The notes beneath the pieces were generated by a model. The model was not told the origin of the DNA. It saw only the letters and a list, made by a program, of their open reading frames with translations, and did no database searches. The position numbers and the translations under genes were made by a program. From Paecilomyces variotii (taxonomy: Eukaryota), in the NCBI GenBank assembly GCA_004022145.1, contig RCNU01000008.1: 64,000 bases of DNA; one strand, written 5' to 3'. Positions 55,898-62,635 of this stretch are shown here, piece by piece (within the stretch, counting starts at the first letter, position 1; the number at the start of each line of letters is the position of its first letter).

Positions 55898-57677
55898 TGT
55901 GATTTATCATCCGCGGTCGAGCATATAGGCAGTGTTAAGAAGATAGACAGAATCAAATGTAATCTCAAAAAAGAGGGAGGAAAAAAGCATTAGTCCCCCC
56001 AGTTAACTCGGATGAATGCCACGTTCTGGTCATATACTCTAGCTCGTCTGAGACGGTGTACCCGAGCTGCAACACGCCACATACGGAAAGCACTAAAACT
56101 AATGCGATGTCTAGTTTACAGGGGTTTGCATGTGTCAAGAAAGATTGCCACTTAGAAATATTGCAGTATGTCTATAATATATCATTATTTACCATTTGTA
56201 TGTCGAGTCTCAGCGTGGAGCATGAATGAGCATATATACGAGGCGAGTGATACATAAACCGCCAAGAGATCAACATAAAACCTGCGATAGGTGAGACCCA
56301 GATCGATATATTTGATAAACATACTAATATTTTGAAGAAGTCGTCTAAAGTAGAATTCTATTCCTTCATCGTCATCGTCGTGCTTTGCTTTTTTAGGCCC
56401 CCAAGTCATGGGTGATCAGGTCCATTTACTGCGACCTCATGCGGTCCCTGAGTTTGTGGCACCCGCCATGCCGGTATCATCGACACCGGTCACGGATATC
56501 AAGCGATAGATTCTGTTGATCTTAGCTTTGCTTCCTTCGCTATAATCAAGATGGATATAGTTCCTCTCTCGTGCTGCGTTTAAGGAATGCCTCAACGCTA
56601 AATATAATCTCCGTTAATCCTCGGAGTTTCAACACAAAACGTCCGCAGTTTCTATATGTTACTAAGTTGGATCGACAATATGCAACGGTCCAATTGTCTC
56701 ATGAATTTCTGGTCCCGATGGTATCATTGGATAGTTCTATCATGATTGGACTTCTTGGAAGGAATACGGGAGCAATATCTCGCCACTGGTACTTTTATAG
56801 CCAAGTTTCAACATCTGCATGATGCTCCCGAGACTGTGGAAGGCCCCTGTAACATGCGGGGAAATTTCTTGGGATAGCCGCAATATGGCGTTTTCACCTT
56901 CTATGTGGATTTGGAAGTGCTCTAGGGCTTTGAAAGGTTCTGGCAGTTGGGTCTCTATTCTTCTGGTTGACACGACACGGGAAAGAGAAGGTGAATGTTC
57001 AACCATCTTTGCTTCAAATGATATGAACGTAAACAAAAAGGCCAAAGGCTCTCAAAGTGCGATTCATGCGTTGAGTCGAGGGAACGCAATGAATCCTTCG
57101 AGTAAGTGAACATAGGCTAACTAGTTGAGTAAAGACTCCAGCACCATGTTAGTGCATAAGCGAATATGTGCTCCTTGAGGAAAAGGAGGTTTCGCCGTCT
57201 ATGACGCCCGAGACATCACTCGGTGTGCCTTTGTTTCGATGCAGTGGCGTGTACAGGATGTATTGTTATTGTTATGATCATCCATTGATGCCCAAGAGGC
57301 TGAAACGGGCAGGTGCAAGTCAAAGGCGCAGTCAACCCGAAGCGGACTAGCGCTCTTCCCTGTTTGTCGACCACCTTCCGCTGCAACATTCGACCCTTTC
57401 ACTCTCTCTCCCATCCATTCCTCCTTAATCCACCCACCCAACGCTTCTTCAACTCCCAAGGAGCATCCGTGATTCATCATATCTACATATACACATCTAT
57501 CTATCTATCGTCTCTGCGATTCTCCGTATCCCCGCGAGAGTTCAGCTTCAGGTCGATTCTCAAAGCGTTGCGATCTTTGGTGACGCAACCTCTTCCACTC
57601 GTCTCCACCAAGTGCTACGGTCGACGTGACCTTTCGTGAGATCTTTCAAATCTATCAAGACTCCTCACGTAGTCAAC

Positions 57678-59670
57678 ATGTCTGGCAAGCTCGACCAGTC
57701 TCTCGATGAGATCCTCAGCAGCCGTCGGCAGGGTAATGCTGGCCGCCGTAATGCGCGTCGTCGCAGTGGTGGCGCGAAGGCCGCTGCCAGCGCTGCTCCG
57801 GTCGGAGGAGTGAAGAAGAACACCAAGGGTGCGAAGCCAGCAGGAAAGGGTGCGCCCACTGGACCTGCAGGAGTATCTGGTGAGAGCAAGATCATGGTGA
57901 GCGGACTGGTAAGCTTTCTCCGTCCACTGTGTTGGGTTGTCTCTCATAACAAGGTATGCGGTACTAACTGTATAACTAGCCACCGGACGTGAATGAAGCC
58001 CAAATCAAGGTATGTTAATCGAGAGGCCTTCGCCTTGGGTTTCTATCGCCATATCTTTTTGAGATCTTCGAGGCGCGAGCGGTTGCATTCCGAGTTTCTC
58101 TATCTCGTCCACGACGCGGTCATACCGGTCGAAATTTTTCGGCGCAGACAGAGTGCTCCTTACCTACGTCCTTGCTCGCCCCTTAGCGGCTGATGCGGAC
58201 TGTGGAAGTAGAGCCCTGTCGCTAGTCTTGCCATGCGCCATATCATTTGCTCGCTATCGGTTAGCAACGCTTGTGTGGTCGCTCTGCAGACTGTGCCATG
58301 AGAGTGTCGATTCAGACGTTCCCGGGTTCTTTTTTTGAACATTGGCTATGCGTTGTGATTTCGCATTCTGGCTTTTATGGGGCATCAGCGAGCGCATCAG
58401 TGAGCGCATCAGTGATTCAGCAGCATAGTTCATCTAGCCACGGAAGAAAGCCAACTCCAGAAGCGACTACGTCCTGCTTGCCCGCCTGCCCGACTATCGA
58501 CTAGCCCACAGCTCAGTGCGGTCGCCTCCCGGAAACCTAAATGCCCTGAAAAACAATACGCATCTCTTGCGGCATGGGAAACATTCTGTGAGCCACTAGA
58601 AATCACAACTCGCTCTTTGTCTTCTCCTATGTCTGCGGCGGCCAGATACAAACAAATAAGCATGCGCGATGCTGTTTGAGAATCCTGGCCATGGTTTCCC
58701 GTATCACATAGCTATTATGCTATGTTGACAGAGTTTTTTACAACCACCGGATATCCACAAATTCGCTCCGTCCCTCATGCCTTGACTTGGATTATATCTC
58801 GCCGGAACTACCGTCCTCATGTCGATGCAACATTTCTTCAAACATCACTAACTACTAATGCTCGCTGTGTACTCGCTGATGCCCTTGGGATTTTCGAGTT
58901 CGGGACCGTTTTCGCGCGCGCATCCTAGCTGTCTCAGTGTCGAGTGCGACGGACGTGGAGTTTCCAATGGAAATACTGATTGTTATGTCGCTATCGTTAT
59001 AGGAGTATTTCACAAAGTCAGCAGGCCCCGTCAAGCGGGTAATGGTGACCTACAACCAGAATGGCACGAGCCGAGGCATCGCTCAGGTGACATTCAGCAG
59101 ACCGGACACTGCGGCGAAGGCCGCTAAGGAGTTGAACGGACTTCTCGTCGACAAGCGCCCGATGAGAGTATGCATCGCACTTTCTCATTCCATTTGATCA
59201 CTCATGTCTAACTCTGTTATAGATCGAAGTTGTCCTCGACGCCACTCGCGCCCCAGAGATTCCTGCACCAAAGCCGCTCACTGAGCGTGTAGCGTATGTT
59301 TGCTGCTCCTCCAGCTTGCTTGTACTGGCTACTGACCTTTGCAGTCAACCCAAGGCCCAGCCTAAGCCAGCTACTGCGACCAAGGCCAATGGCACAGCTG
59401 CCCGCGGTCGTGGCCGTGCTCGTGGCCGTGGTCGTAAGCCCAACAACCGTCCGAAGCCGAAGTCCGTTGAGGAACTCGACGCGGAGATGGTGGATTACTT
59501 TGCCAGCACTGAGAATAGTGCCCCTGCTGCTGAAGGCGCCGCTCCTGCTGCCACCAATGGTGCTGCTGCGCAGCCAGCTACCAATGGTGATGACATGGTG
59601 GCTGAGATATCTGTAAGTCATTGCCGAAAGACGTAAAAGTTGAGCAGGAAGGACTAACTTATCGTAGTAA
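57678..59670 (+). CDS. yra1: mRNA export / RNA-annealing factor Yra1 (ALY/REF family)
   Basis: REF-N box MSGKLDQSLDEI, RRM (KIMVSGL|PPDVNEAQIK|EYF...), REF-C box KSVEELDAEMVDYF; stop codon is the first codon of the last exon (59668-59670). Confidence 0.95.
58010..59002 (+). other. 993-nt structured second intron of yra1
   Basis: GTATGT donor at 58010, TACTGAT branch candidate at 58974-58980, TTATAG acceptor ending 59002; flanking exons join as ...QIK|EYF...; internal long-range complementarity. Confidence 0.88.
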
Positions 59671-60205
59671 ACGACCGGTTTTCATTGAATGCGCTTGAAC
59701 CAGCCTCTCAGCTCTGGAAAGCGAGCATTGACTTACCTGTACTCTAAACCCCCATTTTGTCCGTACGACTTCAGACTTCGCAACCGTTGTCAGAAACTCT
59801 TATTGCAGTTGTTGTTGCTGGTCTTTTTATTACAACCCCTGCGTCTGTTATTTTTTACGGTTTAAGTTTATGCGCTCGGTTTCACGTTGCGGGTTTTCGG
59901 CTATTTGAAGGGATGGGACAAAGGGAGAATGTATGTACTTTTTCACCCGAACTCAGACCATGCTGCTCGTGTTGTAGTCGAGACGAATGCAGGTTTATCC
60001 CGATAATAAATCATGAATTTTGATGATACGATTAATATTCTGTCCGGTAAACATAATTGCGGCTATCCTCAGAGTGTCAGCGACTCTCCTAAACCATCCC
60101 GACAAGTCTGCAGGATGGTGGTGAACTGTCCTGGAAGAATGACACGGCAATATCTCTTTACAACTCCACACGGAAAGAACTCAGATGGTACTTCTCAGCT
60201 TGCCA

Positions 60206-62635
60206 TCAAGTCCACGTCCCATTTGGCGGGCCAAAGTACCCTACTGTTGGCATCTCTTTCCATGGGAGGCCTTCTCCATCCGCTGTGTTGAGATAGACAG
60301 TGTTTCCCCACCAATCTGGGAATGAAGCACCCGGGTAACTGACGCAGAAAAAAATGACAATGCCAGATAAGGCCAGGCCGGTGTCGAGTGCGGCAGCAAG
60401 GACATAGTTATATTTCGTCCACCAGGCGAAGAATTTGCGCTTGATATAGTAGTTGAAGACGAAGTTGACAATGGCCCAACTGGAGTAATTGATTCCGGTT
60501 GCTGTGATATGATATTAGTGGTCACGTTTTGGTAAGTAGCGATGCGGGGAGAATGTGTACCTGGTGGCACGTTATAGGTTCCGACAAATATCAAGGGCCA
60601 ATTGATCAGTTTGAGGAACGGACGTTTAGTATACTTATACAGAAGCCATGTGAAGACTGGGACGAGAGCACCGATCCAGAAGAAGTGCAAGAGAGATGAA
60701 TATATCTTTCCAGCGGAATAGAGACGGCGCGGACCGACCAGACCCCAGACAACGGACGAGGAATATACGGTTCTGCCACCGGGACAGGAGAACCCGTCCG
60801 GCTGGTCAGAATCGCAGACATCGGGGATATGGCCCAGCATCCAGATCGTGACTCCCGCTTGGGTCAAAGCTCCAAGAATGGTTGCGAAACCCTGTGCGAA
60901 GAAGAGCGTTCGCGGTGGGATCTTGAGATAATGGCCCAGCTTCATGTCCATGGCGAAATAGACGCCTTGGCCTACTACGTCTTGCGACAGGACCTTGAAG
61001 ATCATATTGGCGAGAGGCTTTCCTTCAAACATGTAACCGCCGATGAACTCGCTGAGTACGTTGATCTGGTTGGCATTGACGTTGGTGATTCCTTCAATGA
61101 TACCGCATGGGATCATGTACAACGCTGGAATGACCAGGGCTAGGAAAACGCCGTATACAGGGAGCTTTGTCTCATACACTTCGACCATGGCAATTGCAAT
61201 TGCGGTCATCATAACAATTATGGCAGCATACCAGTACCATGGCGTGCTCCTGTATCTTTTCATCAGTCGAGCGTGAATGTCGAGCTTGGTCCTGCCCTTC
61301 CAAGCATCTCTGATATCGTCATAATGCCAACAGGCGACGTGGGTAAGAGCAGCTGTGATAGATGCGAAGGATAAACCGTAGACGAATGCAAATGTCGCTG
61401 GTAGATATGGAGGCGAGTATCGCTTATACGCCTCGACGTCTAAAGAGTTGTCTGGGCCAACGACCCTGCTGGTATCATAGACTTGACCTGTTCTGTCATA
61501 CACATCGGCCGTCATCAGTGGAAGGTAGGCTGTAAACCAGGTATTCGTGTAGTACAGAATCGGAGTGATGATCCAGAAGAACACCACGAATCCTGCGAAG
61601 ACATTGAGAGCTGCCCAAGCAGGTGATAGCAACGGGTCAGTATTGTAGGCCACCATCGACCAGTCGAACGTGATGGGACTAAGTCCAAGTCCTGTCTGCA
61701 TTCCGAAAAGGTGATTTACGATGAGGTTCTTTGGTGCTATCCAACACACCCAGGTAAAGTAGCTGAGCGCAGTGAAGATCAGACCCGGGAACCAGTACCA
61801 TGCGAACGCCGCAATCGTAACGTAGAAGAAAAAGCGCAGACGTGAAACCTTCCAGCCATCAGCGACAGCATTTGCGCGCGAGTGGAGAGTTTCAAGCATC
61901 GCACAATTCGATAACACTGCTGGCCAGATTATACTAGCAGGCTCCACGAGCCATGGCGCTGCCAGTCCGGCAATACCAAAGCCCAGGAGCTGCGCGCATA
62001 ACACAACCAAGACGGAGAATCCTGCCTTGAGTCCAAAGTTGTAGAACTTGGGTGAGGCGGCTTGGATGATTTGAGTGGCGTCCGCACTTCCATAACCGAA
62101 GGAGACATTGCTCATGATCGTTATAACAGCATGTTCCTTGATGTTGAAATGGCTATCTGGGTTTATGCACCATCGTCCCAAGGGACCAAGGTTGACAGTC
62201 CATTGTGGAAGAGTCTTTGCCAGAAATACACCGCAAGGGTACGCCAGAAGTTCTGCGACTAGGGCCACGATGTGTACGGATGGATAGCGCAAAGCGAAGA
62301 ATTGATTAACTCCAGAACCGAGGATCGTGAATATTATTCCTAGCACCCACATGCGCAGAGTATTCACTGGCATGCCGGGGTCATCAACCTCCGGGACGAC
62401 CGCCCGAACTAGAATTGTAGTTAGCGGGCATGCATATAGAGCAGATTACTAGAGCTTATACAGTACCTTCGGGATAGGGCGATCGATCAGATTCAATGTC
62501 GATCTTCGCATTCTCTTTCAACACCGTATTCAAATCAACGTCCAATTCCTCCAGTGCACCTTGTTCAACTTCCGTCTCCCCGCGAGTTGTCGCGGGCTTC
62601 ACGACGGAGTCCATCTCTTTCTCTTTGGAAGCCAT
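60206..62635 (-). CDS. OPT-family oligopeptide transporter (Isp4-like), 3 exons
   Basis: SPYPE|VRAVV...DDP, FNIKEHAVITIM, DMKLGHYLKIPPR, WWTKYNYVLAAALD, WWGN; TGA at 60208-60206. Confidence 0.95.

Follow-up and report, generated by a model that had tools for sequence, protein, structure and literature searches.

A conserved long-range RNA helix in the kilobase intron of a YRA1-type mRNA export adaptor gene of Paecilomyces variotii

Autoregulation of YRA1 by way of an odd, long intron is a textbook case in yeast, and introns of filamentous fungi are usually tens of bases long. In a 64,000-nucleotide stretch of Paecilomyces variotii DNA (contig RCNU01000008.1; the whole of this stretch is called the window here), the YRA1/ALY-type mRNA export adaptor gene is interrupted by an intron of 993 nt, and this locus raises the question of whether so long an intron holds an RNA structure that could take part in the control of the gene. 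A preliminary description, made from the letters of the window, had proposed an inner and an outer helix between distant parts of this intron, acting as a switch that masks a decoy branch point. As judged by comparison with orthologous introns, the inner helix is well supported as a conserved RNA structure. Its parts, and the intron in which it lies, are the following.

58010-59002, + strand: long intron, 993 nt, GT..AG, defined by a joint that skips 993 nt in RNA run X18
58379-58405, + strand: left arm of the inner helix, with parts Ia (58379-58392), middle (58394-58396) and Ib (58398-58405), from RNAduplex and the alignment
58860-58885, + strand: right arm of the inner helix, with parts Ib (58860-58867), middle (58868-58870) and Ia (58872-58885), from RNAduplex and the alignment
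58406-58859, + strand: looped-out central segment of 454 nt, poorly conserved in sequence
58406-58415, + strand: third copy of a 12-nt repeat, which allows slipped registers and is present only in the window and in the 98%-identical relative L001

The inner helix in the window and in related loci

Every string quoted in the preliminary description was found at its coordinates, and the perfect 13-nt inverted repeat at its centre (58380-58392 against 58872-58884, with 479 nt in between) was confirmed. RNAduplex extended this pairing to segments of 14 bp (58379-58392 with 58872-58885), 3 bp (58394-58396 with 58868-58870) and 8 bp (58398-58405 with 58860-58867), which give an interrupted duplex of about 25 bp between 58379-58405 and 58860-58885 at -47.6 kcal/mol, compared with a mean of -30.2 kcal/mol for shuffled sequences, none of which was as good (0/200). 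The helix had first been drawn over 58373-58415 and 58850-58890; its existence stands, and its extent shrinks to the limits given by RNAduplex. As had been noted, a tandem repeat makes up the left arm, in that two tandem GCATCAGYGAG units build 58379-58405. The minimum free energy (MFE) fold of the intron (58010-59002) also contains the inner helix. Across the 64-kb window, perfect inverted repeats of at least 13 nt with a spacer of at most 1000 nt occur once, compared with a mean of 1.65 after block shuffling, so the sequence alone is weak evidence here and conservation has to decide; within the intron alone, where a 13-nt inverted repeat appeared in 12 of 2000 shuffles, it is unusual.

The relatives used for this purpose were metagenome contigs found by scanning with exon 3. 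They comprise 27 loci, 20 of them with both exon 2 and exon 3, five cut within the intron and two intron-less (L003 and L007); the latter two carry the whole coding sequence without introns and were probably assembled from cDNA. In all 20 two-exon loci an intron of 941-1156 nt occupies the same codon position (between ...IK and EYF...). According to blastx against named proteins, L008, L009, L024, L026 and L027 are Penicillium-like, L004 is Aspergillus-like and L002 is Rasamsonia-like. L011, L012, L013, L016 and L017 show at most 59% identity to any of 120 named proteins, and they therefore probably lie outside Eurotiales and Onygenales. The introns of the relatives are 42-54% identical to that of the window (MAFFT), except for L001, which at 98% identity has unchanged arms and is for that reason uninformative.

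The right arm finds a strong partner upstream in nearly all of these introns. In 14 of 17 rows its best upstream partner in RNAduplex beat 200 of 200 shuffles, with lineage duplexes of -37 to -54 kcal/mol compared with shuffle means of -27 to -33 kcal/mol; the exceptions were L009 (2/200 shuffles as good), L027 (1/200) and L002 (50/200), the left arm of which is absent from the contig. For the 13 rows whose intron is complete, this partner begins at a distance of 342-426 nt from the 5' splice site. Spacings are fairly constant: the 5' splice site lies about 370 nt from the left arm, the right arm lies 104-167 nt from the 3' splice site and the arm cores are separated by a loop of 437-598 nt among relatives, the sequence of which is variable. 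Indeed, 11 lineages have conserved, orthologous arms around an interior that is unalignable. Furthermore, the best-conserved 25-column stretches of the 12-intron alignment are the right arm (0.871) and the left arm (0.843), which exceed the region of the 5' splice site (0.833) and far exceed that of the branch point (0.68).

The alignment of orthologous introns also brought out the helix through co-variation. With 12 whole introns (alignment A1, 1462 columns), RNAalifold predicted the inner helix and no other structure, with 15 pairs, four of them with compensatory changes. When 22 pairs were scored in A1, 85.3% of the cells were paired, compared with 27-48% when the 3' partner was slid by 1-3 columns, and none of 500 shuffles reached 85.3%. 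Cells changed on both sides numbered 11, with 5.7 expected, and 7 of 500 shuffles reached 11. Mirrored double changes are present in L017 and L011, and several lineages hold G-U intermediates. In L016 the arms have diverged and both have gained a new, complementary 13-bp insertion; its duplex has -53.8 kcal/mol compared with -32.6 for shuffled sequences and spans up to about 39 bp, and its MFE fold keeps 32 between-arm pairs. Among the helix cells G-U (17) outnumbers A-C (9), which favours the sense RNA. Additionally, 8 of 9 full-length relatives have the inner helix in their MFE fold, and blocking the right arm in silico cost 17-32 kcal/mol. The pairing, alignment and conservation tests thus agree with the earlier claim of a cis-acting long-range helix that loops out more than 400 nt, and show it to be real and under selection in distant fungi.

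Several observations weigh on the other side. The arms are conserved in sequence, which keeps co-variation modest: the number of pairs changed on both sides was matched by 58 of 500 shuffles, and the number of further pair types by 239 of 500. Related sequences can, moreover, beat shuffles in such tools without any structure. The MFE fold of L009 lacks the inner helix, and the whole-intron fold of the window is not unusually stable (z = -0.54, with 7 of 20 shuffles equal). In addition, the taxonomic spread that gives weight to the comparison is one that we deduce for metagenome sequences from their similarity to named proteins.

Another explanation would dispense with RNA structure altogether, the arms being a chance repeat, terminal repeats of a transposon relic or inverted protein-binding sites at the DNA level. 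The number of 13-nt inverted repeats in the window, given above, is no higher than expected by chance, and a co-evolving DNA-binding protein could in principle produce mirrored changes. Against this, orthologous arms are conserved around an unalignable interior, G-U exceeds A-C, and L016 has kept its complementarity with new sequence and a paired insertion. Furthermore, the arm motif has no further copy in the 64-kb window, and the loci carry it at the orthologous arms alone, which excludes a dispersed repeat. An explanation without RNA structure is in our judgement most improbable. Terminal inverted repeats of a MITE or another transposon were considered and rejected, as there are no dispersed copies and the arms are orthologous in 11 lineages.

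The long intron, its transcripts and its other parts

The long intron is both spliced and retained in transcripts. Run X18 has a contig with exons 2 and 3 joined as well as one that is unbroken from 58039 to 59030. In run X17, contig record 7 has introns 1 and 3 removed and the long intron kept (57979-59167 continuous), and the removal of the neighbouring introns indicates that it comes from RNA and not from contaminating DNA. RNA contigs of this kind drop rare isoforms and yield no isoform ratios. Retention of the intron in some transcripts fits autoregulation. Strain variants were seen in four runs at 58162, 58358 and 58726; the arms are free of variants, which is uninformative on the helix.

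Besides the inner helix, the following parts of the intron enter the argument.

58010-58055, + strand: conserved 5' block, the third best-conserved stretch of the alignment (0.833)
58141-58297, + strand: nested helices of the 5' domain (RNAalifold), P1 58141-58147 with 58291-58297, P2 58148-58151 with 58216-58219 and P3 58155-58163 with 58204-58214
58314-58329, + strand: left arm of the outer helix, paired in the window and unconserved
58896-58911, + strand: right arm of the outer helix, paired in the window and unconserved
58847-58859, + strand: branch-point-like motifs CACTAAC and TACTAAT, directly 5' of the right arm of the inner helix
58974-58980, + strand: likely branch point TACTGAT, by motif position, its A 23 nt from the 3' splice site

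The branch motif of the long intron is CTGAT or CTAAT in every lineage, and in the 11 lineages in which its place was measured it is 15-26 nt from the acceptor; in L012 and L013 an ACTAAT is located about 30 nt upstream of the 3' splice site. The four short introns of the gene in the window have CTAAC or CTGAC (CTRAC) at 9-12 nt from the acceptor, and from its sequence the CTRAT of the long intron is presumably the weaker branch point.

At the other end of the intron, about the first 45 nt show conservation across lineages, and the GTATGTTRA start brings an in-frame stop two codons into the intron. This start is always GTATGTTGA across lineages, and it reads GTATGTTAA in the window. Short contigs from other organisms (X12, X15, X17) match 57989-58063 at 85-90% and then diverge; this match, which covers exon 2 and roughly the first 50 nt of the intron, is an independent sign of a conserved intron start. 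The block 58010-58055 may be the counterpart of module A, the 5'-terminal one of the yeast intron. A hairpin sequestering the 5' splice site is unsupported, since only a weak, invariant 5-bp consensus (-1.57 kcal/mol) was found there.

Further downstream, RNAalifold on five Eurotiales-like sequences gave 25 pairs in P1-P3, seven of them with compensatory changes, the pairings being GGCRCAG with CTGTGCC in P1, ACAG with CTGT in P2 and GCTCCTT with AAGTnGAGC in P3. A block at 58173-58196 resembles the right arm of the inner helix (GCTCGC...CTGATGC) with a small hairpin inserted, and this hairpin co-varies between lineages (GCTT/AAGC, GCTA/TAGC, GCC/GGC). Between the right arm and the branch point, a GC-rich block at 58913-58924 is also conserved (TCGTTTGCGC in Penicillium-like sequences, GCGCGCGCATC in the window); no pairing partner was found for it.

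The outer helix of the preliminary description fared differently from the inner one. Its pairing is present in the window (15 of 16 positions, four of them G-U), and its conservation is not: across the relatives 51.2% of the cells were paired compared with 50.7% after shuffling, with 231 of 500 shuffles as high and at most 48% when slid, in a region where the alignment is poor, which weakens this negative. In this regard, RNAduplex between the flanks (130 nt 5' of the left arm and 90 nt 3' of the right arm) gave shuffle-like results in 11 of 11 lineages, with 30-296 of 300 shuffles as good, depending on the lineage.

The branch-point-like motifs beside the right arm (ACTAAC at 58847-58852 and TACTAAT at 58853-58859) are where they had been reported; the overlap of TACTAAT with the right arm disappears with the shorter helix, as both motifs abut the conserved pairing. 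Six of 13 lineages (the window, L002, L016, L012, L013 and L017) have a CTRAY in the 45 nt upstream of the right arm, and none of L004, L008, L009, L024, L026, L027 and L011 does. In those six lineages TACTAAC, TACTGAC or TACTAAT sits 17-38 nt upstream of the right-arm core; the density of such motifs there, 8 in 585 nt, is roughly threefold that of the intron background (0.2-0.7 per 100 nt). These motifs may be an old, dispensable feature, and they cannot be the reason for which the helix is kept. A switch has no support either, as no mutually exclusive alternative pairing was found. The block 58173-58196 was examined as a competitor for the left arm and rejected, as it fails to follow that arm: the left-arm changes of L017, L011, L012, L013 and L004 are mirrored in the right arm only.

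Possible roles of the helix

In yeast, Yra1 inhibits removal of its own intron, and its pre-mRNA undergoes export and degradation, as summarised in the passages of a review that deal with this gene. Dong et al. (2010) describe the yeast intron as five interdependent modules that work only in combination, with Mex67p implicated. According to them, the intron of S. cerevisiae YRA1 has boundaries 285/1052, a length of 766 nt and a position after nt 285 of the coding sequence. The gene of the window resembles it in belonging to the same family, in having a single exceptionally long intron (766 nt in yeast, 993 nt here) and in the existence of an unspliced form, and the feedback and the dependence on Edc3p and Mex67p are described for the yeast gene; the present locus is known from sequence and RNA contigs. 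The position of the long intron is presumably equal to that in S. cerevisiae YRA1.

By analogy with this system, we give an even chance to the reading in which the duplex forms the central structural part of a feedback by intron retention, as in yeast YRA1. The duplex would close a variable loop of about 450-600 nt and tie the conserved 5' domain to the 3' domain of a kilobase intron, the splicing of which is proposed to be slow because of its length and its presumably weaker CTRAT branch point. It could form only after some 500 further nt had been transcribed, and would then compact the intron into a form that is competent for splicing or recognised by a protein. An excess of Yra1 on the nascent RNA would favour retention, and the stop two codons into the intron would make the retained transcript unproductive. 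That the helix bears on the decision to splice or to retain, the sense in which it acts and any action of Yra1 are what we infer from this arrangement.

The closest architectural parallel is offered by zipper stems of yeast introns (RPS17B and others; Rogic 2008, Rangan 2025), which in the passages of these papers on the subject shorten the branch-point distance and promote splicing. There, a zipper stem is defined by a total linker of 42-85 nt and its sequence is 20-30% conserved (Rangan et al. 2025). The stem of the window, at 25 bp, agrees with this type, and its linker of 369 + 88 = 457 nt lies far above the 42-85 nt. The RPL7B intron, as described, combines a zipper stem with a conserved alternative structure bound by the product of its own gene. 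Our case as proposed shares with it autoregulation by inhibition of splicing and a conserved intronic structure near a non-consensus branch point; it differs in that no exclusive alternative structure was found here, in the span of about 450-600 nt within a 1-kb intron and in the regulator, which is an export adaptor and not a ribosomal protein.

These comparisons also bring out what speaks against an autoregulatory core that works by compaction. The predicted distance that separates the 5' splice site from the branch point is short with or without a blocked right arm: the ensemble structural distance ranged over 9-32 when the helix was left in place and over 18-31 once the right arm had been blocked (for example 32 and 31, or 19 and 19), the ends of long RNAs being near each other in any predicted fold. 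Blocking an arm thus leaves the distance no longer than before, in contrast to what is described for zipper stems, and a role in compaction has no support in silico. The linker is several times longer than in zipper stems, and the arms, unlike those stems with their 20-30% conservation, are the best-conserved part of the intron, a strong sequence conservation that may hint at recognition by a protein. Regulation of this intron by Yra1 is, furthermore, carried over by analogy from yeast.

Such a recognition could also take place after the splicing decision, on the retained transcript, where the duplex would serve as a protein-recognised element of export, translational repression or decay, comparable to the interdependent ERE/TRE modules of the yeast YRA1 intron. 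We regard this as a serious rival, although an unlikely one. In its favour, the duplex is conserved in sequence and not in pairing alone, which is unusual for purely architectural stems, the retained transcript with its stop two codons into the intron exists, and the yeast modules act only in combination, with Mex67p implicated in the source quoted above. Against it, the comparison with Rfam that had been proposed for this locus (cmscan, 57000-60200, both strands) returned no match at E <= 1. The NXF1 gene carries a transport element in a retained intron. That known element of an mRNA-export gene is likewise structured, conserved in sequence and intronic, and it differs in being a local hairpin with defined internal loops, whereas we find a long-range duplex. 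The role first put forward for the helix, a repressive switch in which it hides a decoy or alternative branch point by the right arm and in which annealing by Yra1 drives it, now appears quite improbable. In 6 of 13 lineages, strong branch-point-like motifs do sit at a distance of 17-38 nt upstream of the right-arm core, at about three times the background density, and the authentic branch point is the presumably weaker CTRAT in every lineage. The masking of a decoy is nevertheless not a conserved feature: the motifs are absent from seven of 13 lineages, among them six Aspergillus- or Penicillium-like ones that keep the helix, and where present they abut the pairing instead of lying inside it. 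Moreover, hiding a decoy would help correct splicing, so that promotion of annealing by Yra1 would amount to positive and not negative feedback, and no alternative 3' splice joint was seen in the RNA contigs, which drop rare forms. Lastly, a near-perfect duplex of 25-39 bp is in principle long enough to be a double-stranded RNA substrate of RNase III or Dicer, which would destroy the unspliced pre-mRNA or yield small RNAs; the bulges and the internal loop are conserved, however, and there is no specific support for this explanation, which we hold to be very improbable.

A wider version of the autoregulatory reading would see in the duplex, the 5' block and P1-P3 together an RNA domain of ancient origin that senses a protein. 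It would be common to several classes of Pezizomycotina, might go back to the intron from which that of yeast YRA1 also derives, and would be read directly by Yra1 or its partners. This is rather unlikely; if true, it would be a riboswitch-like protein sensor that sets the level of an mRNA-export adaptor, and it would give a physical explanation for yeast intron modules that work only together. The dosage of Yra1 is critical, its excess impairing mRNA export and growth according to the abstract of PMC4818039. Filamentous fungi keep a kilobase intron at this place, and its most constrained feature is a sequence-conserved long-range duplex, which offers two stretches of about 26 nt as a precise mutable target for the question of how an export factor senses its own level. 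It also bears on whether the mechanism predates the major ascomycete split and on how fungal spliceosomes handle very long introns. We know of no RNA structure tied to the autoregulation of yeast YRA1. In agreement with the earlier statement that such a structure is undescribed in filamentous fungi, neither the helix nor a conserved long YRA1 intron of these fungi was described in the full texts searched, which were main texts, with supplements and key older YRA1 papers outside the search; the supplements of Rangan 2025 and Dong 2010 could hold YRA1 structure data. Neither 'secondary structure' nor 'conserved' occurs anywhere in the main text of Dong et al. (2010).

The host gene and its surroundings

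The gene is laid out as follows, all on the + strand.

57678-59670, + strand: YRA1/ALY-type mRNA export adaptor gene, 255 aa, from RNA contig joints, translations of relatives and Pfam
57678-57908, 57980-58009, 59003-59167, 59223-59293 and 59345-59612, + strand: exons
57909-57979, 59168-59222, 59294-59344 and 59613-59667, + strand: short introns
59668-59670, + strand: stop codon TAA, which opens the last exon

The five splice joints of the gene were all present in RNA contigs (public runs), and the proteins of the relatives align with its spliced translation. Four of the introns are 51-71 nt long, which leaves 58010-59002 as the single exceptionally long one. The name yra1 given to the gene in the preliminary description holds. 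Pfam places RRM_1 (E 9e-10) on exon 3, the central RRM domain of Yra1/ALY/REF adaptors, and FoP_duplication (E 2.9e-8) on exon 5, the C-terminal FoP/REF-type region. The matches of the product in the PDB include ALY, THO4 and REF2 chains; a yeast Yra1 chain was not found there. Additionally, 159 proteins matched at E <= 1e-8, the top named ones being at most 87% identical over exon 3, and the closest of these named ones are annotated as 'RNA annealing protein Yra1', 'mRNA export protein mlo3' and 'THO complex subunit 4' in Aspergillus, Penicillium, Rasamsonia, Coccidioides and other genera.

The last intron (59613-59667) ends exactly at the stop codon, so that TAA is the first codon of the final exon. 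Next to the gene, an open frame of 734 aa on the opposite strand (60241-62445, -) contains many hydrophobic stretches and is membrane-transporter-like by appearance.

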